A stretch of 64,000 nt of DNA from a phage: sequence record OZ413489.1. One strand, 5' to 3'. Both the position numbers and the translations under genes were made by a program. The notes below the pieces were generated by a model. It saw only the letters and a list, made by a program, of their open reading frames with translations. It made no database searches and was not told the DNA's origin. Positions 9,407-63,580 of this stretch are shown here, piece by piece; position 1 is the stretch's first letter; each line of letters begins with the position of its first letter.

Positions 9407-9419
9407 TACTTGAAAATTC

Positions 9420-9990
9420 TTGGCATATCAAGTATAAGGGGGATTTCTAAAATGGATTTCCTCCTTTTGATATTTCACCGGGCCGGATATTTTAAAATTC
9501 TTAGAAAATCAGAAAATGGATCGAAAACTAAAATGGATTTTTCAGAGTAGGCGCGACAAGCTGAATAACTCATCCTATCGTTTGCACCATATTCCAGGCC
9601 ACCATTATAGATTTCCCACACATGCTAACCTCCCTCTACTAGAACTTCCTCCACTTACCCTTGACCTTCTATGGTAACAATCTAACCGCTATCTTGAAGT
9701 TGCTGTGCAGCTTTCCAGGTACTCGATCTACTTTTCATTTCAGGGCTTGGATTTTCTGAAAATTTTTCTCGATAAATTTCTCAGTACTCGATCTGTTTTT
9801 CGTTTTCTGAATCGGATTTTCTGGAAATCGTTCCGGCTCTCGACCTGAAATTTTTGGGGACGAAATCGATTTTTCGTTTTCAGAAATGGATTTTTAAAAT
9901 TTCTATATGGGAATATTTTATGGGATACTGTTTTATAGGAAATTGTTACGGAGGGTAATTAGCGTGCTAATTAAATTTATTAAATGCGAG
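9420..9990. repeat. ORF-free region of degenerate direct repeats
   Basis: Recurring tactcgatct, ggattttctg, tttcgttttc, aaatggattt motifs; no ORF of 60 aa or more. Confidence 0.6.
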
Positions 9991-10004
9991 GAGTTCTCAT
10001 TTAG

Positions 10005-10225
10005 AATTTTGAATGATAATCATTCTCGTTTGCAGAATAACGGGCAGGCCCGGTGATTGTCTCCCGGCCCCTACTGCCCCGGCTTGTTATTATAGTATCA
10101 CACAGGACAAAGAAAGCAAGGATTTTTTGCATAAATTTTTAAATGATAATGATAACCGTTCTCATTTTATGCAGCGCCCATCCCCGGTGGTTGTCTCCCC
10201 CGTCACCGGTGCCTGCCGTCCTTTC
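10005..10225 (+). repeat. two tandem ~75-nt GC-rich units containing ccggtgRttgtctccc
   Basis: Unit 1 ~10005-10085, unit 2 ~10143-10225; each begins aatgataat and contains a GC hairpin. Confidence 0.6.
10045..10067. repeat. 23-nt inverted-repeat arm, left (ggcaggcccggtgattgtctccc)
   Basis: Exact reverse complement of 17486-17508. Confidence 0.75.
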
Positions 10226-10422
10226 GATAGGTATATCGTGCCACCTGGCGGGGCCGCTGTCAACACTTTTCAAAAAATTTTTCTAACCTGATGCGCTAAC
10301 CGCTGCAACCTGGCGGGGTCAGCCTGGCAGGACCTAACTGACCGGGTAGGAGAGAATGAAGGCTTGTAAACCTGGTGGGCCTATGCTACAGGATAGGTAA
10401 CAATTGAAGAGGAGGTACAAAA

Positions 10423-10590
10423 ATGAAAGGTAATATGATCCCCCTAGAAAATGTAGCTATTAATGACGCTGAGGCTATCGCCCTGGTTGAAAAGGCTATG
10501 GCGGGAGCGTTGGAACATAAAGAAGAGTACGAAAAATGGTGGTTAACCTGGCGGGGGCGGCAGGTGGATTCTATCATAAAAATAATTTAA
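10423..10590 (+). CDS. small hypothetical protein (55 aa)
   Basis: Strong RBS gaggagg; not in ORF track (<60 aa). Confidence 0.45.
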   Translation: MKGNMIPLENVAINDAEAIALVEKAMAGALEHKEEYEKWWLTWRGRQVDSIIKII

Positions 10591-10598
10591 AATAGTCG

Positions 10599-10626
10599 TT
10601 GACAACAAGGTTAATCATGGTATTAT
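10599..10626 (+). promoter_or_regulatory. sigma70-like promoter (aaatagtcgttgaca...tattat)
   Basis: Same upstream motif as promoter at 2010. Confidence 0.5.
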
Positions 10627-10676
10627 TACCCTACAAGGTGAACAACACCGCACTAACCAGTAAAGAGGATAAATTT

Positions 10677-10874
10677 ATGAACGCATACGGGATCAAAGTA
10701 CGTCGCAACACTCGCCAGGTGGTCACCAATCAAGTGATTTGCCGGGTGGATGTAACCATCAACAACGGGCAAGGCCTTTATAAATTTCGTCGCGGTCATA
10801 GCTATACCCTGCAACAGCTTAATCGTTGCGCCCTGACAAAAGGTCAGATCAACCATTGGTTTAATAAAAAATAA
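10677..10874 (+). CDS. hypothetical protein
   Basis: ATG 10677 after gagga RBS; track start 10599 lies in the promoter. Confidence 0.5.
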   Translation: MNAYGIKVRRNTRQVVTNQVICRVDVTINNGQGLYKFRRGHSYTLQQLNRCALTKGQINHWFNKK

Positions 10875-10877
10875 GTA

Positions 10878-10906
10878 TTGACATACAGTCCGACACCAAA
10901 TACACT
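10878..10906 (+). promoter_or_regulatory. sigma70-like promoter (ttgaca-17-tacact)
   Basis: Hexamers upstream of 10939 gene. Confidence 0.5.
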
Positions 10907-10938
10907 AAAAGCACAAAAGACACTAAGAGGATAAAATC

Positions 10939-11337
10939 ATGAAAACCACTACCTTTAATTTTGATAATGCAGACTTTTCTTTTTCTGATGTCAAGAACTG
11001 CCGCCGTGATCGTGGATTTTACAAGGCTTATAATCTGGTGGGCCTGGACGATGACAATAATTTGCACGAAGTAGCTGAGATCCGGTATTATGCCGCCGCC
11101 AGCGGTAACACTAACTACTGCGTTTTTTGGATACACGACAACAAGAACAATAAGTACGGTTATACTGGTGGCAAGGCTAGCGGTCACGGTTATGATAAAG
11201 CCAACGCTGCACTTGAAAGCGCATTAAATGCCATGGGAATCACTGCCGACGGCTGGATCTATGAAGAAGAGTTTTTGGCGGCACTTGCTGCCCACCTGGG
11301 CTATAAAAAGCACATTGTAACATGCGCCCACGAATAA
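10939..11337 (+). CDS. hypothetical protein
   Basis: 132-aa ORF, RBS aagagga. Confidence 0.6.
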   Translation: MKTTTFNFDNADFSFSDVKNCRRDRGFYKAYNLVGLDDDNNLHEVAEIRYYAAASGNTNYCVFWIHDNKNNKYGYTGGKASGHGYDKANAALESALNAMGITADGWIYEEEFLAALAAHLGYKKHIVTCAHE

Positions 11338-11347
11338 AAAAAAAATT

Positions 11348-11376
11348 ATTGACACGCTGCAAAATTCAAGTAAACT
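11348..11376 (+). promoter_or_regulatory. sigma70-like promoter (ttgaca-17-taaact)
   Basis: Hexamers upstream of 11425 gene. Confidence 0.5.
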
Positions 11377-11424
11377 AGGCACAAAAGGCGGGAATGTTTC
11401 CCGCCAACACGAAGGAAAAAGATC

Positions 11425-11820
11425 ATGAATAAAAACGTACGCCGCATCATGAACGAACTGGCAAACGATGAAAAAATTATTGATATGCATTTGGTCAACA
11501 TTTGCCGCCGTTGTGTAACATATAACAACCGCGCCGCAAAAGCGCGTGAGATGAACGCAAAAGGCACCTTAAAGCCCTTTCAGGTGGTTGTAAAATCTAT
11601 GACCAGTGCAGCAGGCCAGGCGCATGACCACAACAACGGGAGCACTAATATTGATCCATCTTACGTAATGAAACGGATCCGGACTTGCAAGAATAAAGAG
11701 CAGGTGTATAACGTCATAGATTGGCTGGACTCCCTGGGTGACGTGGTTTACAATAGGTTTTCTGCAGCTATTGAAATTCAGTTAGACAGGTTGGACGGGA
11801 AAGTACTGAAAACTTACTGA
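11425..11820 (+). CDS. hypothetical protein
   Basis: 131-aa ORF. Confidence 0.6.
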   Translation: MNKNVRRIMNELANDEKIIDMHLVNICRRCVTYNNRAAKAREMNAKGTLKPFQVVVKSMTSAAGQAHDHNNGSTNIDPSYVMKRIRTCKNKEQVYNVIDWLDSLGDVVYNRFSAAIEIQLDRLDGKVLKTY

Positions 11821-11822
11821 GT

Positions 11823-11868
11823 TTATTTTTAGATGGCCTTGACTCCAGGGCCATCAATAAAGTAAACT
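11823..11868 (+). promoter_or_regulatory. conserved promoter-stem-loop module, copy 1
   Basis: ttatttttagatggccttgactccagggccatcaataaagtaaact: 7-bp stem gatggcc/ggccatc enclosing ttgact. Confidence 0.6.
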
Positions 11869-11900
11869 AATCCCAGTTAAGCGAAAAAGGAGGCTTGAAG

Positions 11901-12020
11901 ATGAGCACTACACGCCAGCACACAAAGGTAACTATTATCGTTTGCATCATTGGTTATATCCTGGCGCAAATGTTGATGGGTAGCGCTAACGGTGTCGCAA
12001 AATTTTTCTTAAACTTTTAA
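11901..12020 (+). CDS. small hydrophobic peptide (39 aa)
   Basis: RBS aaaggagg; TM-like IIVCIIGYILAQMLMG; below ORF-track cutoff. Confidence 0.4.
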   Translation: MSTTRQHTKVTIIVCIIGYILAQMLMGSANGVAKFFLNF

Positions 12021-12049
12021 TTGACAAGCTAACTTAGATCAGTATACTA
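12021..12049 (+). promoter_or_regulatory. sigma70-like promoter (ttgaca-17-tatact)
   Basis: Hexamers upstream of 12098 gene. Confidence 0.55.
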
Positions 12050-12097
12050 AACACATAAACGGGAAAACTTCCCAGAACACCAAAAGGAGAAAACATT

Positions 12098-12448
12098 ATG
12101 AATACTTCCATCACTATGACCGCCGAAGAAAAAGCCCTGCAGATCGCCGCTCTGAAAAAACAGATTGCAGAACTTGAAGACAAGATCGACAATTTTGAAA
12201 TCGACGAAGACAAATACGACGATAAATATGATGAATGGTTGGACGAGATCTACGGCGAAATTATGATCGGAAACATTTCTTTTCTTCCGTCGCGTATCCT
12301 CAAGGAGCTAGATCCTATCGCTTACCGCTGCGGATTTAGCGACTACATCGACAGCCTGGATATTGAGGACGATGAAGAATACCAGGAATTGCAGACAGAG
12401 CTTGAAGAAGTGAAAGAAGAGCTTGCAGAACTGGAAGAAAACGAGTAA
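12098..12448 (+). CDS. highly acidic coiled-coil protein
   Basis: 116 aa, Asp/Glu-rich with heptad-like N-terminus. Confidence 0.6.
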   Translation: MNTSITMTAEEKALQIAALKKQIAELEDKIDNFEIDEDKYDDKYDEWLDEIYGEIMIGNISFLPSRILKELDPIAYRCGFSDYIDSLDIEDDEEYQELQTELEEVKEELAELEENE

Positions 12449-12450
12449 GA

Positions 12451-12496
12451 TTATTTTTAGATGGCCTTGACTCCAGGGCCATCAATAAAGTAAACT
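12451..12496 (+). promoter_or_regulatory. conserved promoter-stem-loop module, copy 2
   Basis: Identical to copy 1. Confidence 0.6.
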
Positions 12497-12537
12497 TTAT
12501 ACTGTTAACACTGAACTAATGCATAGGAGTTAAAACC

Positions 12538-12783
12538 ATGGCAGCACTAATCACCAAATATTATGCCCCTACCAACACCAAAAGCGCCCGTATCATGGTA
12601 AAAGGCTTCGGACGTAAAAAGGTTTACACTTGGGATTATTCCCTAGACATGGAAGACAACTACACCAACGCGATGACCGATTTTATTAATGAACTAAATA
12701 AGCAGATCTTAACCAATTATAAGGTGACCGACATCGCCTATGTTGGGGAAGGTGGGATCTGTTTTGTCGGTATTGTCAAATAA
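12538..12783 (+). CDS. hypothetical protein
   Basis: 81-aa ORF. Confidence 0.6.
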   Translation: MAALITKYYAPTNTKSARIMVKGFGRKKVYTWDYSLDMEDNYTNAMTDFINELNKQILTNYKVTDIAYVGEGGICFVGIVK

Positions 12784-12835
12784 GCTGTTTTTTCGGTGGT
12801 CCTGGTGGCAGGGCCATCTATAAAGATAGTTTATT
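12784..12835 (+). promoter_or_regulatory. diverged promoter-stem-loop module
   Basis: gtggtcctggtggcagggccatctataaagatag; same layout, different stem. Confidence 0.4.
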
Positions 12836-12858
12836 AACACCATGAAAGGAGAAAGTAC

Positions 12859-13212
12859 ATGATCAGCGGGGCTAGTTTTATTATTGGCGCTATTGCTACA
12901 GCTTTAATTGTAAACAAGATCCAGGATAAAAAGGAAAGAGGAAGTACCGCCCTTGCAGAATATCCATTTTGGACATTCAACGATAACGAAGATTATATTA
13001 TAAAGTATAAAAATAAAGAAGGTGACCAAGTAACACCGCGACCGATCCCGGCTTACAAGATGCAGGAAACACTATACCGCTTGGAGGCAGGGGGCGCAAA
13101 AATTGTGGACTTTTGGGGATACGATCACACAGATCAGGAAGTTATAAAGCGCCGTATCCGGGCTATTCAGGCCAATATTGAAGTTAGCAAGGGGGGAATA
13201 TATGAAGATTAA
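12859..13212 (+). CDS. membrane-anchored hypothetical protein
   Basis: N-terminal TM helix, 117 aa. Confidence 0.6.
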   Translation: MISGASFIIGAIATALIVNKIQDKKERGSTALAEYPFWTFNDNEDYIIKYKNKEGDQVTPRPIPAYKMQETLYRLEAGGAKIVDFWGYDHTDQEVIKRRIRAIQANIEVSKGGIYED

Positions 13213-13399
13213 TTTTGAGAAAATTGTAAAGCGATCTCATGATTCCGAAGAGCTGCCGGAACGCCGCCAGCGTAACAATAAACTGAATAAGCCAAAAAGA
13301 TTTGGGAAGATCTGGCGGAATCATTATGATCGTAAATTGCCGGGCCTCCTTTTGGAACGTGAACGGCAGGCGGAACGATACCGCCACAAAGGCAACTAA
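13202..13399 (+). CDS. small basic protein
   Basis: ATG 13202; Lys/Arg-rich. Confidence 0.4.
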   Translation: MKINFEKIVKRSHDSEELPERRQRNNKLNKPKRFGKIWRNHYDRKLPGLLLERERQAERYRHKGN

Positions 13400-13406
13400 C
13401 AACCAA

Positions 13407-13434
13407 CGCCCCGCCATCGTGCGGGGCTTTTTAT
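13407..13434 (+). terminator. intrinsic terminator
   Basis: gccccgc-loop-gcggggc followed by tttttatt. Confidence 0.65.
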
Positions 13435-13556
13435 TTCTACCCTACGAATAGCGCCCCTGGTTGGCCCCACAACGCCCTAAAAGCCCCCTACCCATGCAAT
13501 CCCATTTCTTAACCTGAAAACATCGTCAAAGGCTGTTTTAAAGCGTTAAAAATATT

Positions 13557-13584
13557 GTTGACATCTAAAATATTCTAGATATAC
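13557..13584 (+). promoter_or_regulatory. sigma70-like promoter (ttgaca-16-tatact)
   Basis: Hexamers upstream of 13621 gene. Confidence 0.55.
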
Positions 13585-13620
13585 TAATCACATCAAAGCG
13601 AGAAGTAAGGAGTAAACGCC

Positions 13621-13881
13621 ATGCGTAAATTAAAAAATTTTGATAAAGTTGATATTGTCCTGAATAATTTTTACTACTGCAATAACAAGGCCGTTTGGTG
13701 GCGTGATAGTTCCACCGATAAAGTCAAGGCGCGCTTTCTCCAGGGGCACTGGCAAGGCCGCCCAGTGATTAAAATCATGGGGCAATTGGTAGCGTTTAAA
13801 AATTGCCGCCGTGTTGATGACGTTGAAGAGATTTTAAACATTTTGCGCCACAATAATTTAAAAAATAGTGTTGACAAGTAA
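13621..13881 (+). CDS. hypothetical protein
   Basis: 86-aa ORF, RBS aaggag. Confidence 0.55.
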   Translation: MRKLKNFDKVDIVLNNFYYCNNKAVWWRDSSTDKVKARFLQGHWQGRPVIKIMGQLVAFKNCRRVDDVEEILNILRHNNLKNSVDK

Positions 13882-13898
13882 ATCTCAATAAGTATAAT
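13871..13898 (+). promoter_or_regulatory. sigma70-like promoter (ttgaca-16-tataat)
   Basis: Consensus hexamers; overlaps 3' end of previous ORF. Confidence 0.55.
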
Positions 13899-13955
13899 TA
13901 AAAACACAGGCGGGAAAACTTCCCGCCACTAACAAAGAAAACAGGAGAAAATATC

Positions 13956-14579
13956 ATGACCACCGTTAACATTACCACAGGTTACAATTTATCTTTCGAC
14001 GTGCTGACCGACGAACAAAAAGAAAAAGCCGTGGAAATGGTCCGCGAAAGAGAAGAACACAGCGGGGATAACTTTTTTGCAGAAAGTGTAATTGAGTACT
14101 ATAAAGAATATGTTTTTCCAGAGTACGGCCTTGAAGATACCGATGTACATTGGTCAGGCTTTTGGTGCCAGGGTGACGGCGCGTCAATCAGTGCGGAAAA
14201 CGTGGATTTAGAAAAATTCTTGCGTAAAGTCAAGTCTCTGACTAAATTCCGCTCAATTCGTCACTTGTTCGGCACAATGCACGATGGCGAGTTATCCGCA
14301 AGTGTTGAGCGTGATCCATATAGCCGCTATAGTCACGAAAACACTGTAAACGGATACATCGATACTACATGGCTAGACCTGACCACCAAACAAGAAAACA
14401 AAGTGGAAGATCTGGAAGAGCTGATCACCGAGACGGTACGGGAGTTATCCCGCAAGGTTTACGTAGACCTGGAGGAGGCCTATCTTGAACAATTCACCGC
14501 CGAAAACTTGATCGGCCTTATCGAGGCCAATGATTGGCGGTTTGATGTCGATGAACACGGTAAGATGACTTTTTCATAA
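13956..14579 (+). CDS. hypothetical protein
   Basis: 207-aa ORF. Confidence 0.65.
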   Translation: MTTVNITTGYNLSFDVLTDEQKEKAVEMVREREEHSGDNFFAESVIEYYKEYVFPEYGLEDTDVHWSGFWCQGDGASISAENVDLEKFLRKVKSLTKFRSIRHLFGTMHDGELSASVERDPYSRYSHENTVNGYIDTTWLDLTTKQENKVEDLEELITETVRELSRKVYVDLEEAYLEQFTAENLIGLIEANDWRFDVDEHGKMTFS

Positions 14580-14667
14580 ATAAAGTGTTGCAATAACCTA
14601 AAAACCTGCTATATTAAAACTCAAGGGGCAAGACGTTTGCCCCACACAAAACAAAGAGGTAAACATT

Positions 14668-15048
14668 ATGAAAAACACTACTAAAGCTATTGACACCGTT
14701 ATGTTTAACCTGGTTACATTCCGTGAAGATATGAAAGATCTTCCACGTGAAACAGTGTGCGATCACATTGAAAACTATCGCAAACTAATCAAAGAGTTGC
14801 CTTTAAAACGTGACCAGTATGCGGCTAACGCTATGCTTAACGCCATGATCAAAAAGATGATTCAGTGTGATTTAACTCTGGCCTATGATTATGCAGGTGG
14901 TCGTTTTGCAGTATACAATCAGCCCGTGCCTGGTATGAGCACCACCGAAGAATTGCACGCGTTAAATCTGAAACAAGATGTATGGGATAACATGCCCCGC
15001 GTGGTGGTGTGGGCAGAAAGCGGAAAGATTTACGGCGATAATTTTTAA
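14668..15048 (+). CDS. hypothetical protein
   Basis: 126-aa ORF. Confidence 0.6.
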   Translation: MKNTTKAIDTVMFNLVTFREDMKDLPRETVCDHIENYRKLIKELPLKRDQYAANAMLNAMIKKMIQCDLTLAYDYAGGRFAVYNQPVPGMSTTEELHALNLKQDVWDNMPRVVVWAESGKIYGDNF

Positions 15049-15112
15049 TCAGGTAACAGGCGGCATATTTGCCGCCTTATTGTTAAACAGAACTGCAAAA
15101 GAGGTACATAGA

Positions 15113-15484
15113 ATGGAATTTATTATTTTGGCTGTAGTAGTTGCCTTGTTCAACGCCTGGATCGCTGGCAAGATAGGTAGATCCGCTTTTCTATGGTTTG
15201 TTATATCTATTTTCCTGGGAGTGGTTGCAACTATTGTATTGGTTATCCTTGCAATTGTTGACAAGGGCGATAATAGAAAGGGTAAAGTGTTTTCCGACCT
15301 GTATGACGCACAAACGTTTGTCAACGCCTATTATAGTGATCTTCCAGTCTCCCTACGCTGCAGCCTGGCACAACAGGTTTTTGATGAGGCTAAAACCAGA
15401 GACCAAGCCCATGAGATATGTTTAACTGAAGCGGATCGCCTATTTGAGAGGAATAGAAAATATGTGGACCAGCCGTTTAAATAA
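15113..15484 (+). CDS. membrane protein (two TM helices)
   Basis: ATG 15113 after aagagg RBS; hydrophobic N-terminal half. Confidence 0.55.
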   Translation: MEFIILAVVVALFNAWIAGKIGRSAFLWFVISIFLGVVATIVLVILAIVDKGDNRKGKVFSDLYDAQTFVNAYYSDLPVSLRCSLAQQVFDEAKTRDQAHEICLTEADRLFERNRKYVDQPFK

Positions 15485-15683
15485 CGCCACGTTAATTAAT
15501 CCCTTTAGTGAAGATTTGAAGCCAGCCGCCTGGCGTGACGGATTCAATAACGAACGCTTTATTTTCAGGCCTGATCTTGAGGAATTTTATAACAATGGAT
15601 CGAACAACAGCGGAGATAATTTTTCTTGTGGTGTGCGTGGTGATAGGACTCCTGGGGGCCATTGTAAACCACGTCACTACTAA
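15462..15683 (+). CDS. hypothetical protein (alternative: overlapping frame 15535..15720 with a TM segment)
   Basis: Two overlapping frames; neither resolvable from sequence alone. Confidence 0.3.
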   Translation: MWTSRLNNATLINPFSEDLKPAAWRDGFNNERFIFRPDLEEFYNNGSNNSGDNFSCGVRGDRTPGGHCKPRHY

Positions 15684-15703
15684 CAGGAGGGAAGGGGGAG
15701 ACG

Positions 15704-15823
15704 ATGACAACCAAAGATAAGCCATGCGCTGATAAGGTGCGCCGTGTTATGGTATGGCTTGAGATTATCGCCCTTGAAATATTGTTAGGCGTAGGGATGT
15801 ACTTTATCGCTGTAAGTAACTAA
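15704..15823 (+). CDS. small membrane peptide (39 aa)
   Basis: RBS aggaggg; hydrophobic core; terminator immediately downstream. Confidence 0.4.
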   Translation: MTTKDKPCADKVRRVMVWLEIIALEILLGVGMYFIAVSN

Positions 15824-15825
15824 GA

Positions 15826-15856
15826 GCGGCCCCCGATCATGGGGGCCTATCTTTTA
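15826..15856 (+). terminator. intrinsic terminator
   Basis: ggccccc-gatcat-gggggcc followed by T-run. Confidence 0.65.
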
Positions 15857-15961
15857 AAAAATTTTTCTTCCGGGGTGTTGCAATCCGGTCCGGAATGTGG
15901 ATAATAACAATCAACGGGGAGCTAATCCCCACCACCACAAAAACCAGAAAGGAGAAACAAA

Positions 15962-16162
15962 ATGAGCAACAATATCCGCGTTATTAACTTCAAAAAAGAA
16001 GAAAAAATTGCCGTGCTGATTGACGGTCAAGAAATCTTCAAGGGCGACTATGAAGATCATCAAACGGCGATTAGTATCACTCGCGTGATTGGTTATCATA
16101 ATTTCTACCCCCAAGGCGCTGAGGCAGCAGTTAAACGAATCAAAGAGATTGTAGGCCTGTAA
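15962..16162 (+). CDS. hypothetical protein
   Basis: 66-aa ORF, RBS aaaggagaaa. Confidence 0.6.
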   Translation: MSNNIRVINFKKEEKIAVLIDGQEIFKGDYEDHQTAISITRVIGYHNFYPQGAEAAVKRIKEIVGL

Positions 16163-16165
16163 AAT

Positions 16166-16210
16166 TTATTTTTAGATGGCCTTGACTTCAGGGCCATCGA
16201 TAAAGTAAAT
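16166..16210 (+). promoter_or_regulatory. conserved promoter-stem-loop module, copy 3
   Basis: tttatttttagatggccttgacttcagggccatcgataaagtaaat. Confidence 0.6.
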
Positions 16211-16255
16211 TTAAACCCTGTTAAAATACCACGCAGTTAACAAGGAGTGATAGAC

Positions 16256-16555
16256 ATGTTTATCCAGGCTAATAATCTTTATTTCTTTGATGGTCAGATC
16301 GTAGATGGTGTGGAAGTGGAGATCACCGGGTGCCCTGGCGGTCAGGCTATGACTTTTCGGAATAATGCCTTTGATGATTCTCATATCGTTATAAGAATGG
16401 AAGTTACGAAGCTGGACGACAAGAAAACACTTATTGACTATTCTGTGAAAGATCATCCAGACTACCGCATGATCCATGGTGATTTGTGCATTGTTGACCG
16501 TGACAAGGTGGGCGGCATTGTGATCGCTATTGTGAACGATGTTTTCTCAAACTAA
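16256..16555 (+). CDS. hypothetical protein
   Basis: ATG 16256 after aaggag RBS. Confidence 0.6.
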   Translation: MFIQANNLYFFDGQIVDGVEVEITGCPGGQAMTFRNNAFDDSHIVIRMEVTKLDDKKTLIDYSVKDHPDYRMIHGDLCIVDRDKVGGIVIAIVNDVFSN

Positions 16556-16572
16556 TTTCAGCAGGCGATTTT

Positions 16573-16923
16573 ATGAAAGTCAAACTATATTACCTTAATG
16601 AGCTTAACCCCCTTGCCCAGGTCCGCGCCCTAGCTAATACCTTGATTTGTGAGAAATCTGTATATTGTGTTGAGCTTAACGCCATGCGTGAACGTCTCAA
16701 AGGTGGTTACTTTGACATCCATGCTGCAATCAACGGCCTGAATATGGAATTTATACGCTTACGTAACAGCCGCCGGAATCTGGCAAGAATGGAACAAGAT
16801 CCGGCCCACCTTCGTAAACTGGTTATTGAAAATCATCTGATGTTTAATGCCGAGGGGGATTATTACCATTTTCACCGCAAACGCTGGTACCGTGGCGGCA
16901 ATACAGGCAAGAATGCAAAATAA
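16573..16923 (+). CDS. hypothetical protein
   Basis: 116-aa ORF. Confidence 0.6.
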   Translation: MKVKLYYLNELNPLAQVRALANTLICEKSVYCVELNAMRERLKGGYFDIHAAINGLNMEFIRLRNSRRNLARMEQDPAHLRKLVIENHLMFNAEGDYYHFHRKRWYRGGNTGKNAK

Positions 16924-16957
16924 GGCCCCTAGCAGGGCCTGCAGCAATATAATCACA

Positions 16958-16992
16958 TAAAGGCCATGCGGTTGCATGGCCTTTATTATTTT
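16958..16992 (+). terminator. intrinsic terminator
   Basis: aggccatgc-ggtt-gcatggcct followed by ttattatttt. Confidence 0.6.
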
Positions 16993-17048
16993 GGCGTTAC
17001 AACGGCATACGGGGCGCTTAAAAAATTTTTAAAGAAGTACTTGCATCA

Positions 17049-17530
17049 TTCCCGACAATATGGATAATAAGAGTTGTCGAGGGGGAGGCCCCCAATCGTT
17101 GACCAGATAGATAGGAGTTAAAATCATGGCTATTGTTACCGCTGGCTATCTTCAAAGATGCGGAAGCAAAACAACGCCGGATCTCAATACATGAGATCAT
17201 CAACCTTAACGCTGGAGGCACACCATACCGCCCAGGACCTGGCCGTGAGATGGACAATACGCTAGCGATCCTGAAGATACGCCGTAAACGGTCCTCCCTT
17301 ACTCTGGACTCATTACACACAATGCAGCCTCCGTTCCAGGTGACCGGGAAACGGATCGCCAGGTCCTGGACAAAGGCCAATGATCGGACCGTATAAATAA
17401 AAGTGTTTTGGTACTGATTTTGGGGTTGACTTGTTCGGCCCCTTTTGCTATTCTTATTAAACGGGCGGCACTTGGGAACAGGGGGAGACAATCACCGGGC
17501 CTGCCTGTCATATAAGAACTATAAAAACCG
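17049..17530 (+). other. promoter-driven GC-rich leader region: candidate 22-aa leader ORF or structured RNA
   Basis: ttgcat-16-gataat promoter at 17049-17076; 22-aa ORF at 17126 with aggag RBS; both long ORFs here look non-protein-like. Confidence 0.35.
17486..17508. repeat. 23-nt inverted-repeat arm, right
   Basis: ggagacaatcaccgggcctgcc is the reverse complement of 10045-10067. Confidence 0.75.
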
Positions 17531-17559
17531 TTGACATCTGCCATGGGGTGGGGTAACAT
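17531..17559 (+). promoter_or_regulatory. sigma70-like promoter (ttgaca-17-taacat)
   Basis: Hexamers upstream of 17614 gene. Confidence 0.5.
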
Positions 17560-17613
17560 TTATCTTGAAGGGGCAAAAGTGCCCACACAACAACCAAGAG
17601 AGAGGAAAACACT

Positions 17614-17886
17614 ATGTCAAACTGGATTAATCAAGAAGTCGAATCACGTTTTAATGCTATTTGGGATCTCATCGAAAAAGAAGACGGCACATCAAGCCCC
17701 TACCTCAACAATTTGGAATTCCATTTTGTGGAAGCGATGAACGCAGAACATGATCACGAAGGTGGCGCGGATGAGTTCGCTAAAGGTTATGGCTTTAACA
17801 ATGCCAACGAAATGATCGAGGCGGTAGTACTCCAGGCTGAGGAAGATTATCAACTAAAAACGCTTGAATTCTGCCGCCGCAAGTAA
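17614..17886 (+). CDS. hypothetical protein
   Basis: 90-aa ORF, RBS agagagga. Confidence 0.6.
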   Translation: MSNWINQEVESRFNAIWDLIEKEDGTSSPYLNNLEFHFVEAMNAEHDHEGGADEFAKGYGFNNANEMIEAVVLQAEEDYQLKTLEFCRRK

Positions 17887-17946
17887 TAAGATAATGACAC
17901 GGGCCAAAAGGCCCACTAATCAGAACCGCACAAAGAGGTAAACATC

Positions 17947-18210
17947 ATGAAACGTCTTGATCAGCTCAAATTAGTTCAATATATGGCTTATCGTGTTCTT
18001 GAAGTCCAGAAAGGTAGCAAAAAAGAGGTTTGCGAGAAAGCTTATAAGATCTTCACTCGCAAAAAAGATGACTGGATGCTACGCCAGACTAAAAAGGCTG
18101 ACATCTTGGGGTACCTGGAAGAAGAGATCCGCCTTGAAGAGCAAGAAGAGATCCGCCGTAGTGAGGCAGATTATCAGGCAGCTTGGGAAAACTGGATGAG
18201 CAACAAATAA
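17947..18210 (+). CDS. hypothetical protein
   Basis: 87-aa ORF, RBS aagaggtaaa. Confidence 0.6.
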   Translation: MKRLDQLKLVQYMAYRVLEVQKGSKKEVCEKAYKIFTRKKDDWMLRQTKKADILGYLEEEIRLEEQEEIRRSEADYQAAWENWMSNK

Positions 18211-18256: not shown

Positions 18257-18859
18257 CTCCTCTTTTCCTACCACAAATGGCCCCGCCTGGCAAATGGAAT
18301 AATCAACAAGCCAGCAATTAACCCCACTGTACAAACATACATATAAAATAACTATTGCATAATTTTTCATTGTGTGGTAGCAGTGCCATTTTTACACGTT
18401 TTTCCTTCCAAAATTGCACGTAATGCAGCATTTGCACAAAATTTAACCTGATGCATATCTTCAATAGCTTGTCAACAACTAAAAATCTTTATAAGTCATA
18501 CACTTACATAACTACAAAAACGTTTTCTACGTGAAAAATCGAGTATAACTATAGCCGCCAGATCTCAGAATTTACGTACGCTCGCCATTCTATAGCCTGC
18601 TAAGCATTTATTCCAACCATAGAATAACGGAATAGTCAATACCTGCATAAAATAATTATTCGTGTAAACTGCATAACATAAATCGGCCCAGGTGTCAACA
18701 TTTTTCGTAAACAGTCTGGAATTGTCACGTTAGGTTACCATAAGCAGAGAAATCTTTAGTCGTCTAATGTTTACTGTACATTACTATACTGACTGGAATC
18801 ATTAGATGACTAAGAGAAAGATAAGAAATAATTAATAATGTAATTATTTTACCTGTAAC

Positions 18860-19125
18860 AATAAGGCAACTATGCAAACGAATGGCATGGCGCGACGGAG
18901 TCGCGACATAATATAAAAGCAGTAACCATCACCCCCGTGATAGTTTGTCTGCAAACTATTAATCAGATCATAGTTGCCTTGTATTTAGTTAATCATGACA
19001 TGACAAGCAAGGCAACTATAGATCTGCTAATAGTTGCCCTGCTTTTATATTATGTCATGCTAATTATAATCAGTGCGATTATTGTCATGTATAATTATTG
19101 TCATGCAAACGAATGGCATGGCTGA
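18860..19125. repeat. array of aaggcaactat motifs in both orientations plus duplicated gcaaacgaatggcatggc
   Basis: Copies near 18863, 18970 (inverted), 19009, 19031 (inverted variant); 18-mer at 18874 and 19106; cgcgac-ggag-tcgcg palindrome. Confidence 0.6.
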
Positions 19126-19132
19126 TTATCGG

Positions 19133-19230
19133 TGTGTAAACAGTCAATCATGTAAATGGTTAGCATGTGAACAATCAGGAATGTAAACAATCCAGTGTGT
19201 AAACTAATAGGTGTGTAAAAGTGTCATGTT
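19133..19230. repeat. iteron-like array of six tgtaaac-type direct repeats
   Basis: gtgtgtaaacag, atgtaaatgg, atgtgaacaa, aatgtaaacaa, gtgtgtaaact, gtgtgtaaaag at 10-20 bp spacing. Confidence 0.55.
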
Positions 19231-19364
19231 GTGTCAGTTAGGTCACATTATGTCAGACAAGTTTTTCTCCTCTTTGTCAAGTGCTGCATGAAAAATTTAC
19301 AAGCTTGTATGGTAGCATTTTTGCGGCCCTGTTTACATTCAGTAATGTATGTATAATCCTTGTT

Positions 19365-19527
19365 GTGTGGGCGTTTAGACGTCTAGACGGTTGGAAGTCC
19401 ACAGGTCAATATCTAATCTATCGGCTGCTAACTATATCCCACACATGTGTGGGCGTTTAGACGTCTAGACGGTTGGAAGTCCACAGGTCAATATCTAATC
19501 TATCGGCTGCTAACTATATCCCACACA
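19365..19527 (+). repeat. perfect tandem duplication of an 81-bp unit (82-bp period)
   Basis: Unit gtgtgggcg...tagacgtcta...cccacaca twice; 7-bp terminal inverted repeat gtgtggg/cccacac; tataat hexamer at 19351-19356. Confidence 0.8.
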
Positions 19528-19789
19528 AATAGTAAGAAATATGATTGTTATATGCGTAAACTGTAACTCATGTTATCAATCCCTGTATGGATCGCCAGTG
19601 GTGCGCATAATAGGTATTATGTTAAATTGCCCGTAATGATAACAGTTCTCACAATGATAGGTATTCTCATTCATCCACACAAAATAGGTTGCAAATGTTG
19701 TGCCACTGTGTGAACGGCCTGGCCTATTAATTTCTCTCACTGCCTCGATATTTGAGAATTGTTATAAGAATGAGAAGTATTCCCATTCC

Positions 19790-20130
19790 GTCCGCCTGGC
19801 AGCACTCCTGTAGGTCCTGCAAGGACTCTAGCTGAAAGCTAGACCCTTCGGGCCTCCCTGTAGGTCAGGTCAAAATCGTGGTAGAATTGGGCCTGTTCAG
19901 ATATTTCTGGCTGACTCTTCAGGTCTGTGTGGGAAAAGCCAACCTCTCCGGCGGGGCAGGGGGTCATGACGGGAAAATTGCAGGTCAATTAAAAAATTTA
20001 CGTGGTGTATGAAGCGCTCTTCAGGTAAGGCATGTATTATGGGATGAAACCCTCTTCAGGCAATGATATTTGTGGGTGTGATATTTGCTGGAAAGCCAGA
20101 TATGACGGGACTCCCGGCGGGGATGGGGTA
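19790..20130. repeat. GC-rich segment with recurring short motifs
   Basis: ctcttcagg x3 (plus one at 20465), ccggcgggg x2, cctgtaggtc x2, atgacggg x2. Confidence 0.55.
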
Positions 20131-20823
20131 GTACAGACAGGGAAAATATGAGAATGTAGTTGGGGAAATTGATCAGACAGGTAGAGTATGGAATATGTTA
20201 CAAGTATGTTAAATATGGAGGTTGAATATCTGTAGGATTTGTGTGTAAAATCAAAGACTTAAGGGGTGTTGTGGTATTTTCTATAAATAATTCAAGTTTA
20301 ATAGGCAATATTTGTCTCTATCCGCTTTGTGTGGTAAACAGATTCAGATTAGATTGGTTTACAAGTGTATACATAATATACAAATTAAAGATACAAGAAA
20401 CCCCCCTCCCCCTTCGGCTACCATTCACCTTTTCCTCTGACTGGTACTTAAACACTTATTCAGACTCTTCAGGTTATCACCCATATATCATATGGCAGTG
20501 ACTGGTGTCCTCCGGCCCCTCTTTCGTCACCCGTCCGCTTCGCCATGCTAATGCCATAGCCAATGGTTCGGTTGTTCACTCTGTTCACTCAGGTGTATCT
20601 CCATACCCCTTCAAACCGAAGAGAACAGAAAACCCGAATTACTCGGTAAAAGAAAAGAGAAGAACTTAATTTTATCAGGATAGGCAAGAATGTCAAGGCA
20701 TGACTGCTCACTAAACAAGCAAACAGTCATGTGTGGAAGGTAAGTGATTGTGGTGGTGGGAAATTTAGTTGAAAGATGTGTTATAGGTGCTCCCAGCACT
20801 TTAGCCGGGTAGCTAATTGTGTG

Positions 20824-62767: not shown

Positions 62768-62842
62768 GCCCTGTTAGCTTAGTGGATAAAGCAGCGGCCT
62801 TCTAAGCCGTTGACACTGGTTCGAGTCCAGTACGGGGTGCCA
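62768..62842 (+). tRNA. tRNA-Arg (anticodon UCU)
   Basis: Cloverleaf folded by hand; loop cttctaa; TTCGAGT T-loop; encoded CCA. Confidence 0.75.
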
Positions 62843-62846
62843 AATT

Positions 62847-62933
62847 GGGGAGTTATCCCGTAGAGGTAGCGGTGTAGACTGTAAATCTATTGTCATTGCG
62901 ACTCGGGTGGTTCGACTCCACCACTCCCCACCA
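62847..62933 (+). tRNA. tRNA-Tyr (anticodon GUA), long variable arm
   Basis: Perfect acceptor ggggagt/actcccc; loop ctgtaaa; encoded CCA. Confidence 0.75.
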
Positions 62934-63047
62934 AATTTATATTTTTAGATGCATAAATAATACAGATAATGGCATTGATATTTATCGTCGTTTATACTAG
63001 TCACTAACTGCTCGAAAATCAGTGTCATTATCAGTATAATTTATAAA

Positions 63048-63138
63048 GGAGGGTAGGGAGCAATGGTGCTCAAGCGGTCTTGAAAACCGTCCCGTTGAGG
63101 ATGACTCGATGATGGTTCGATTCCATTACTCTCCGCCA
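63048..63138 (+). tRNA. tRNA-Ser (anticodon UGA), long variable arm
   Basis: Anticodon arm gcggt-cttgaaa-accgt close to E. coli tRNA-Ser(UGA); encoded CCA. Confidence 0.7.
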
Positions 63139-63236
63139 CATTGTTGACCTTGTAATTAAGCGAAAGCCGGAAGCAGAACCGGATTATCAAATGTTACAGT
63201 CGTCATCGCCGACTAGCAACATGGTCAACATGCTGA

Positions 63237-63335
63237 GCTAGGTAAGCCCTTTGGCAAGGGCGAGGATTTTTAATCCTGAAAATAGACGAGGTAGTCGTTG
63301 AATACATAGGTGGTTCGATTCCATCACCTAGCACC
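63237..63335 (+). tRNA. tRNA-like gene with aberrant anticodon arm
   Basis: Acceptor gctaggt/acctagc, D-arm and T-arm fold; anticodon region is either a 5-nt loop or a 4-bp stem with loop tttttaa; 3' end is CC then T. Confidence 0.35.
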
Positions 63336-63340
63336 TTTTT

Positions 63341-63416
63341 GCTGATGTAGCACAATCGGTAGTGCAATTGATTTGTAATCAATAGGTTGTAGGTTCAAAT
63401 CCTGCCATCAGCACCA
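63341..63416 (+). tRNA. tRNA-Thr (anticodon UGU)
   Basis: Perfect acceptor gctgatg/catcagc; loop tttgtaa; encoded CCA. Confidence 0.8.
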
Positions 63417-63417
63417 A

Positions 63418-63492
63418 GGCCCTGTAGCTGGAAGGTTCAAGCAAGCGACTCATAATCGCCAGACGGTGGTTCAATTCCACCCAGGGCCACCA
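63418..63492 (+). tRNA. tRNA-Met (anticodon CAU; could be Ile-lysidine type)
   Basis: Perfect acceptor ggccctg/cagggcc; loop ctcataa; encoded CCA. Confidence 0.75.
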
Positions 63493-63503
63493 AATAGTAA
63501 ATA

Positions 63504-63580
63504 CTCCGCGTAGCTCAGCTTGGTAGAGCGCCTGATTTGGGATCAGGAGGTCGAGTGTTCGAATCACTTCGTGGAGACCA
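63504..63580 (+). tRNA. tRNA-Pro (anticodon UGG)
   Basis: Anticodon arm cctga-tttggga-tcagg; canonical D-arm; encoded CCA. Confidence 0.75.

Follow-up and report, generated by a model that had tools for sequence, protein, structure and literature searches.

Mirror-placed non-coding cassettes around a small-gene block in an rV5-like Vequintavirus as candidate transcription-control elements

The small-gene block and its inverted repeat

The DNA analyzed here is a stretch of 64,000 nucleotides from a phage (sequence record OZ413489.1), hereafter the window, and its subject is an exact 23-nt inverted repeat, GGCAGGCCCGGTGATTGTCTCCC, whose two arms bracket a block of small genes. The window is that of an rV5-like Vequintavirus of E. 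coli: megablast of 9700–18000 returned 130 phage records, nearly all of them rV5-like Vequintavirus of E. coli, with Escherichia phage vB_EcoM_10C2_SA_NWU as the best match (97.5% identity). Genes lie on the plus strand from approximately 4 kb to 18.2 kb and on the minus strand from 18.3 to 58.7 kb. The block itself holds approximately 19 small plus-strand open reading frames (ORFs) of 39–207 amino acids, in agreement with the array of small genes described by an earlier reading of the letters without database searches (the sequence-only reading). All 17 block ORFs that were scanned matched phage protein families of unknown function, and the Pfam and PHROGs searches of the block and its neighbors gave families of unknown function only. 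The wealth of promoters noted earlier was also borne out, with 33 promoter-like sites in the block against 18.2 expected.

Compared with phage isim, the window lacks 2.19 kb at 17139–17149, a segment that carries eight small genes in isim (L001 8927–11113). The ORF at 17133–17396 matches its family only over positions 19–101 of 102 and is therefore regarded as a truncated gene. The deletion and the truncated ORF indicate that gene content between the arms varies by ordinary insertions and deletions. A 49-nt repeat family was also observed within the block (11820–11868, 12448–12496, 12783–12831, and 16163–16211). Each unit forms a hairpin-plus-promoter module, in which a 7-bp hairpin (GATGGCC...GGCCATC) carries TTGACT in its loop and TAAACT follows 18 nt later; this design, with the −35 inside a hairpin loop, resembles that of the right cassette described below.

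The 23-mer occurs exactly twice in the 64 kb, once on each strand, and not at many other positions. The repeat reported by the sequence-only reading was thus confirmed, with its coordinates (10045–10067 and 17486–17508) displaced by 2–3 nt. No match to the 23-mer was found in 100 dinucleotide shuffles, even when up to three mismatches were allowed. In a longer form, the inverted repeat extends to 29 nt at 93% (10037–10065 and 17483–17511), and a second left copy of 19 nt (10183–10201) is 95% complementary to 17481–17499.

The setting of the two arms is only partly as first described. The left arm lies in a gap of approximately 1 kb without credible genes (9407–10422) and is GC-rich, with a guanine–cytosine (GC) fraction of up to 0.59 at 10175–10324 and of about 0.40–0.45 nearby. 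The right arm is likewise non-coding, in a 217-nt intergenic gap (17397–17613), but is not strongly GC-rich (0.46–0.48), and the GC-richer stretch near it (17150–17374) is coding. The two tandem units of about 75 nt that had been proposed at the left arm were not recovered, as Tandem Repeats Finder reported none there; instead, two homologous cassettes lie approximately 134 nt apart and are only loosely alignable outside their core, and direct repeats of 65–74 nt sit further left. The latter comprise three AT-rich direct repeats with CTCGATC cores at 9709–9894 (also 9444–9540), to the left of the left cassettes; similar repeats (GGTTCTCGATCG...GATCGTATT) lie ahead of the left cassette in CR8, KpS8, Kashira, and SSE121, and may represent iterons or binding sites. 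Inside the otherwise non-coding gap of Phapecoctavirus, Mydovirus, and a Serratia phage, phrog_19316 was observed as a small conserved ORF that runs opposite to the block (L002 3685–3954 on the minus strand, L006 16961–17152, and L007 16581–16847); the window has no counterpart.

Orientation of the block and matching of the arms in related phages

Short inverted repeats flank the multi-kb invertible segments of Mu (G segment, Gin–gix), P1 (C segment, Cin–cix), and Salmonella (Hin–hix), and the window resembles them in having such repeats, exact over 23 nt and 93% matched over 29 nt, at both boundaries of a discrete gene block. The arms could accordingly be the sites of a site-specific recombinase that inverts the 7.4-kb block. 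However, in 103 of the 130 records a single collinear stretch spans at least 80% of the 8.3-kb query, the orientation of the segment with respect to its flanks did not differ among the relatives examined, and a query for the inverted junction found no record joining both halves among 122 matching phage records. No alternative orientation was thus seen in over 100 genomes, and inversion would place all 19 genes antisense to their flanks. The window further differs from the Gin, Cin, and Hin systems in lacking an annotated invertase and an enhancer. Among its 231 features, the curated 135-kb genome of the relative MaxTheCat has no annotated integrase, invertase, resolvase, or transposase (a statement about annotation, without a profile search of ORFs), and the words "integrase" and "recombinase" are absent from the rV5 genome paper.

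Moreover, the two arms are not kept matched within a genome. The left and right cores differ at two positions in isim and at least one in MaxTheCat, Gotham and rV5_ev147 share only the 17 nt GGGAGACAATCACCGGG between theirs, and the cores of ESCO5, CR8, and Mydovirus (KpS8) diverge further, with several differences and no compensation. As the match is not kept in other genomes, the perfect 23/23 agreement in the window is lineage-specific. Inversion by a site-specific recombinase is refuted at the level of assembled genomes, and we give it almost no credence.

A mobile cassette of the composite-transposon type, or one resembling a miniature inverted-repeat transposable element, bounded by the arms as terminal inverted repeats, fares no better. 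Inverted terminal copies with outward promoters recall the geometry of Tn10/IS10. However, no transposase is annotated in MaxTheCat, and no target-site duplication or direct repeat flanks the arms (AATAACG/GGCAGG and CCTGCC/TGTCATA at the two junctions). In Vequintavirus, Phapecoctavirus, Certrevirus, and Mydovirus alike, the block keeps one syntenic position, variation is limited to inner gene content and arises by ordinary insertions and deletions, and neither megablast nor low-stringency blastn placed the block and its arms at a different genomic position or in an unrelated replicon. We find mobility scarcely believable. An unchanged orientation in all relatives examined, together with the lack of an annotated recombinase, is the very outcome that the sequence-only reading had set against its own suggestion of an invertible or mobile module. 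For annotation, this means that the block is neither a phase-variable nor a mobile module, and we hold with good confidence that the arms are not recombination sites but the cores of regulatory cassettes.

A conserved non-coding cassette and its predicted promoters

The arms are the most conserved part of a non-coding cassette of approximately 110–130 bp, which is present in three copies per genome, two on the left (LA and LB) and one on the right (R). An nhmmer profile built from cassette copies gave exactly three significant matches in the window, LA, LB, and R, and exactly three on the whole 135-kb MaxTheCat genome. Given that the promoter strand of R is the plus strand, R is the mirror image of LA and LB (Table 1).

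Low-stringency blastn showed that approximately 56–60 nt around each arm (10009–10067 and 17443–17498) are 77–89% conserved in other genera, namely Phapecoctavirus (ESCO5, phAPEC8), Certrevirus (CR3, CR8, phiTE), Seunavirus (SSE121), and Mydovirus (KpS8, BIS47), and in Serratia phages. All of these matches are intergenic, and the flanking genes are beyond blastn detection. The left–right pair, again mirrored and with 6–11 kb between its members, was found in isim, ESCO5, CR8, KpS8, and three IMG/VR contigs. It brackets a small-gene block of the host-RNAP type in Vequintavirus, Phapecoctavirus, Certrevirus, and Mydovirus, and hence in four genera or more; the gene layout is alike in all, with a non-coding gap of approximately 1 kb followed by a run of small same-strand genes. 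Overall, at least six genera share the conserved cassette in a fixed architecture. A neutral relic of an old duplication, devoid of function, would suit the small early-gene regions of large phages, which are prone to recombination, and the window itself bears a 2.19-kb deletion; such a relic is nevertheless very improbable, since the cassette is conserved across genera and two subfamilies in which the neighboring genes escape blastn, and its position and orientation are conserved too. Two allelic flank forms, CACCGGGCCTGCC and CACCGGGGGTGCC, are each seen on the left as well as on the right, depending on the genome, a hint that the copies may exchange sequence.

The left cassette gave only one chance-level 26-nt match by blastn against 5,426 E. 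coli genomes. Pattern scans of IMG/VR with AATGATAATCATTCTC and CCGGTGATTGTCTCC returned mostly unrelated contigs, and the scan with GTTAGCCCCGCCTTT was informative. A literature search found no description of the cassette family, or of the Fur-like boxes treated below, in these phages; the family consists of undescribed but conventional-looking regulatory cassettes.

Two further elements were observed in relatives. KpS8 has a third, weaker cassette-like copy (L006 5664–5738; TTGACC-N17-TGtTATGCT, then ...GGAGGATACAATCACCACCCCTGCG) where its two gene blocks converge, which points against the block; its counterpart in the window is the promoter part only (18663–18702, minus strand). In place of LB, other genera carry a different, very conserved block (...CTACCGGCGATCCACCTTCC...GTTAGCCCCGCCTTTTCGCCGTGGGGTGGCG...; L002 3540–3660, L003 2740–2900, and equivalents in L006 and L007), which is absent from the window. 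An outward promoter close to consensus (TTGACA-N17-TATACT in ESCO5, for example) belongs to this block, and one hairpin, as judged by eye, shows compensatory changes between genera; the block may be another non-coding RNA.

For the anatomy of the cassette, 34 unique copies were reduced to 18 at under 90% identity and aligned on the strand pointing away from the block. The consensus starts with a conserved TTG (−35), a 16–17-nt spacer of free sequence, and an extended −10 of the form T.TG.TAT..T. Such a pattern, in which the hexamers are conserved and the spacer keeps its length but not its sequence, is the mark of a genuine promoter. The −10 is followed by about 26–30 nt of variable G-rich sequence (36 nt in LB) and then by the invariant core GGAGACAAWCACCGG, given also as GGAGACAATCACC for LA/LB and R. 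Downstream of the core come 13 nt without insertions or deletions (..TGCC.G..), then ATTCTG, and then, in most copies, one to five palindromes of the type AATGAGAATCATTCTCATT. On its promoter strand, LA therefore reads outward promoter, a conserved segment of approximately 55 nt with the core, and Fur-like box.

The features of a sigma-70 extended −10 promoter (−35 and −10 hexamers, a 16–18-nt spacer, and TG at −15/−14) were recovered in R by a promoter scan, and the same pattern was read in each cassette of each genus. The −35 of R sits in the loop of a terminator hairpin (17422–17442), a terminator-plus-promoter design that was also read in ESCO5, CR8, and KpS8. On the left, a candidate inward promoter has a predicted transcript start at approximately 10042–10045, the first bases of the 23-mer, and the left copies of other genera carry its hexamers at an unchanged spacing; judged against the consensus it is weak, and the promoter scan did not list it. 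The predicted outward and inward promoters thus face each other approximately 50 bp apart, with the core in between.

Table 1. Features of the block, the repeat arms, and the cassettes (window coordinates).
Feature	Coordinates	Strand	Description
Left arm	10043–10065	+	exact 23-mer GGCAGGCCCGGTGATTGTCTCCC, core of cassette LA
Right arm	17483–17505	-	reverse complement of the 23-mer, core of cassette R
Third, diverged core copy	10183–10201	+	CCCGGTGGTTGTCTCCCCC, within cassette LB
Cassette LA	10009–10126	-	nhmmer 10013–10121, E = 6e-23; wider model 9959–10126, E = 2e-37
Cassette LB (second left copy)	10145–10270	-	nhmmer 10148–10259, E = 2e-19; wider model 10109–10270
Cassette R (right copy)	17421–17529	+	nhmmer E = 2e-25
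Block of ~19 small genes	10423–17396	+	includes truncated gene 17133–17396
Predicted outward promoter of R	17426–17454	+	TTGACT-N17-TATTCT with TG upstream; scan tool
Predicted outward promoter of LA	10092–10119	-	TTGCTT-N16-TGaTACTAT; sub-consensus −35, extended −10; read from sequence
Predicted outward promoter of LB	10235–10263	-	TTGACA-N17-CACGAT (CACAAT or CAAAAT in relatives); read from sequence
Candidate inward promoter	10009–10038	+	TTGAAT-N18-CAGAAT; read from sequence; Fur-like box A is the spacer
Predicted second promoter	17531–17559	+	TTGACA-N17-TAACAT, between cassette R and next gene (17614–17886)
Fur-box-like palindrome A	10009–10027	.	TTGAATGATAATCATTCTC, 15/19 to GATAATGATAATCATTATC
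Fur-box-like palindrome B	10145–10163	.	GATAATGATAACCGTTCTC, 16/19 to GATAATGATAATCATTATC
Third, degenerate Fur-like box	9982–10002	.	AAATGCGAGGAGTTCTCATTT; 14/18 to phage-type palindrome at 9983

An ORF of 92 amino acids (10013–10291) covers LA and LB and is annotated as a hypothetical protein in several relatives (Gotham F10B_0202, MaxTheCat bas57_0099). It is probably not a gene, because it is frameshifted in rV5_ev147 and overlies the promoter and operator motifs; the ORFs over the left cassettes in several GenBank records are thus probably spurious.

Fur-box-like palindromes and a proposed role in transcription control

The consensus of the E. coli Fur box is GATAATGATAATCATTATC. The palindromes of the left cassettes match this 19-bp consensus and have its dyad symmetry, with agreement of up to 18/19 in phiTE and near-perfect palindromes AATGAGAATCATTCTCATT in relatives; the degenerate third box of the window aligns with the second box of other genera. 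Across six other genera, sites with at least 14/19 agreement number 7–13 per 12–20 kb against 0.3–1.0 expected. The phage boxes favor TGAGAAT/ATTCTCA half-sites. At a cutoff of 14/18, the window contains only five instances of the phage-type palindrome AATGAGAATNATTCTCATT; those at 9983, 10012, and 10148 belong to the left region, and the other two are at 19653 and 19769. Six of the seven such palindromes in MaxTheCat fall within the two regions equivalent to these. Box A occupies the spacer of the predicted weak inward promoter. A winged helix–turn–helix protein is encoded elsewhere, and a phage-encoded regulator could be an alternative reader of the boxes. A small peptide encoded across the Fur box was considered and rejected, as it needs CUG or GUG starts with poor Shine–Dalgarno spacing and its apparent conservation follows the DNA motif.

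We judge it somewhat better than an even bet (a probability of roughly 0.55) that the inverted repeat is a by-product of mirror-placed homologous transcription-control cassettes and not a recombination substrate. The same degree of belief applies to transcription control taken as a whole; most probably, the cassettes are control elements of this sort or short non-coding transcription units at the block boundaries, and may be coupled to host Fur. Host RNA polymerase would fire outward from each cassette and yield a short RNA rich in G, either a non-coding transcript or a leader, with the core as part of it. At the left copies, outward transcription would meet the weaker inward promoter head-on, approximately 50 bp away and with the Fur-like box as its spacer, and the pair could form a convergent-promoter or antisense gate at the block boundary; alternatively, Fur bound just downstream might act as a roadblock for the outward RNA. 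Such a gate would be coupled to host Fur and hence to iron status, and the right copy would restart transcription directly downstream of the block's final gene and its terminator.

Several observations weigh against this proposal. The outward promoters of LA and LB are sub-consensus and fall below the promoter-scan threshold, and no terminator was found after the outward transcripts. The core lacks dyad symmetry and is therefore unlike a classical operator. Because KpS8 has its third copy elsewhere, "two boundaries" is a simplification. Counted over the whole window, Fur-consensus sites show a weak excess (6 against 2.6 expected), and no good Fur-like box was found in the right cassettes of Vequintavirus, nor in those of Phapecoctavirus. 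At the level of RNA, RNAalifold gave 0 consensus pairs on 25 units, the minimum free energy of the cassette corresponds to z of about −0.8 and −0.7 on the two strands, and the arm folds in the window are not significant on either strand; a structured RNA is not supported, as neither strand has a conserved fold. Finally, the promoters and transcription starts of the cassettes are predictions, as is the binding of Fur to the boxes; a literature search found no transcriptome for this phage group. Other identities considered for the core, namely CRISPR-repeat mimicry, ops/nut/put, and sites for IHF, PhoB, CRP, or MntR, did not fit by eye. Closing helices seen by eye with some compensatory changes (AUAGCGGG/CCCGCUAU, AUGGCG/CGUCAU, and AUGGCA/UGUCAU) shift register between lineages, and for this reason no structure is claimed for them.

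For the cassettes, Rfam searches of the window, of both arm regions, and of the CR8 left region gave no match better than chance, whether judged by gathering or by E-value thresholds, and scans for tRNA and tmRNA genes were negative around the arms and at six related loci. The cassettes might be genes of small trans-acting RNAs, with the 13–17-nt core as a pairing seed, or as a protein-binding or decoy motif directed, for instance, at a host defense, and with host or phage targets instead of an effect in cis. Each copy has its own predicted promoter followed by a short conserved segment, sequence is kept where structure is not, as for a single-stranded seed, and the related phage phiTE provides a precedent, although no more than that, in its non-coding RNA mimic acting against ToxIN (PMC3475682). 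However, no intrinsic terminator or U-tail follows the segment on either strand, no Rfam family matches, the right copy runs straight into a second promoter and a gene, and E. coli genomes show no similarity by blastn, which is blind to short seed matches. We therefore consider trans-acting RNAs unlikely. The cassettes resemble the pseudo-ToxI of phiTE in being non-coding, promoter-driven, and located in an early-type region of the same phage group (PMC3475682), and differ from it in having neither tandem repetition nor a pseudoknot-like conserved fold. A probe made from the ToxI repeat found no ToxI-like sequence in the stretches scanned, which included one from phiTE.

Alternatively, the left and right transcripts might pair with each other, a rightward RNA from the left arm forming a 23–29-bp duplex with the likewise rightward leader of cassette R, as a small RNA and its target or as an RNase III site. 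Complementarity over 23 bp is perfect in the window, and both RNAs are plausible from the predicted promoters; yet it is not kept in isim, MaxTheCat, Gotham, or rV5_ev147, and the uncompensated core differences in ESCO5, CR8, and Mydovirus weaken the idea further, as there is no co-variation. A single 7.4-kb transcript is unlikely because terminators and promoters lie between the arms. Pairing of the two transcripts is consequently improbable. The sequence-only reading had also suggested that the arms are regulatory RNA elements acting as a pair, or that a common regulator binds them. As to the kind of element, which is regulatory, this is supported; the arms do not, however, resemble a co-varying left–right RNA duplex, and a conserved RNA fold was not recovered.

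Transcripts prime replication through R-loops at T4 oriF and oriG and in ColE1, and the outward promoters could similarly prime or activate replication origins, with a G-rich transcript beside AT-rich repeats as the R-loop primer. Consistent with this, the predicted outward RNA is rich in G, AT-rich palindromes and the 65–74-nt repeats at 9709–9894 lie in the direction in which the left cassettes point, with the same layout in other genera, and the right cassette points toward a repeat-rich region at 18.4–20.3 kb. However, a promoter, two genes, and a strong terminator separate the right cassette from any repeat region, no initiator-like protein was recognized beside the repeats, and the skew analysis in the rV5 paper failed to locate an origin. 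An origin function is, in our estimate, a slim prospect.

A broader form of the transcription-control proposal is put forward only tentatively, and we regard it as rather doubtful. Virulent phages of the subfamilies Vequintavirinae and Stephanstirmvirinae may share an undescribed device in which arrays of host Fur operators are wired to convergent-promoter cassettes with an invariant 15-nt core, mirrored at the two ends of the early gene block; this device would read host iron through Fur to gate transcription entering or leaving the takeover genes, or to release short RNAs, and the Fur-like boxes would mark a second non-coding region as well.

In logic, the nearest analogs of the cassettes are Fur-repressed promoters, the pIN/pOUT pair of IS10, and the promoters of phage 186, with homology to none. 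Like the Fur-repressed promoters of Enterobacterales (iucA/aerobactin and ryhB type), the phage sequences have 19-bp palindromes with 15–18/19 agreement, arranged in tandem arrays of one to five, one of them between a −35 and a −10. In contrast to those promoters, the candidate boxes occur in a strictly virulent phage, adjoin a conserved core, face a predicted stronger opposing promoter, and show no similarity to RyhB or any Rfam family. In IS10/Tn10, a strong promoter directed outward opposes a weak one directed inward, and their transcripts overlap by a few tens of nucleotides. The cassettes share this arrangement, as far as predicted, and the two inverted copies around a gene block, but are only approximately 120 bp long and lack a transposase, terminal transposase sites, mobility, and sequence similarity. 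Face-to-face promoters also control lysis versus lysogeny in the coliphage 186/P2 switch through phage repressors, and convergent promoters approximately 50–60 bp apart, as there, are expected to cause transcriptional interference; here, by contrast, a virulent phage is concerned, whose candidate operator is similar to a Fur box of the host.

We know of no account of early-gene control in rV5-like and phAPEC8-like phages, which are broad-host-range therapy candidates. The conserved cassette and the Fur-box-like palindromes, confined to two regulatory regions per genome, offer a concrete and testable handle on it. Both the gut and infected tissue are poor in available iron, and if Fur does bind, infection by these phages would be tuned by iron availability.

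The second region with Fur-like boxes (18370–20300) is an ORF-poor stretch of approximately 2 kb where the plus- and minus-strand gene blocks converge, and many GenBank records of Vequintavirus have been opened in or near it. It holds four Fur-like half-overlapping boxes (19634–19670 and 19752–19790), and the equivalent gap of phiTE (L004 12411–13879) carries an 18/19 Fur box. An 80-nt direct repeat is present twice (19366–19440 and 19446–19520), with AGACGTCTAGACG in each copy, which we take to resemble tandem MetJ boxes. Repeats of the type GTGTAAAC at 19130–19220 match the DnaA box at 8/9 on the other strand.

Other features were recorded toward the ends of the window. A group I intron lies at 243–478 (Rfam RF00028, 64.7 bits), and according to the rV5 paper the large terminase gene contains introns. 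Seven tRNA genes are clustered at 62768–63580. One of these, at 63237–63335, has a 4-base anticodon according to ARAGORN and scores only 35.5 bits in Rfam; a tRNA-Lys is annotated at the corresponding place in the cluster of MaxTheCat.

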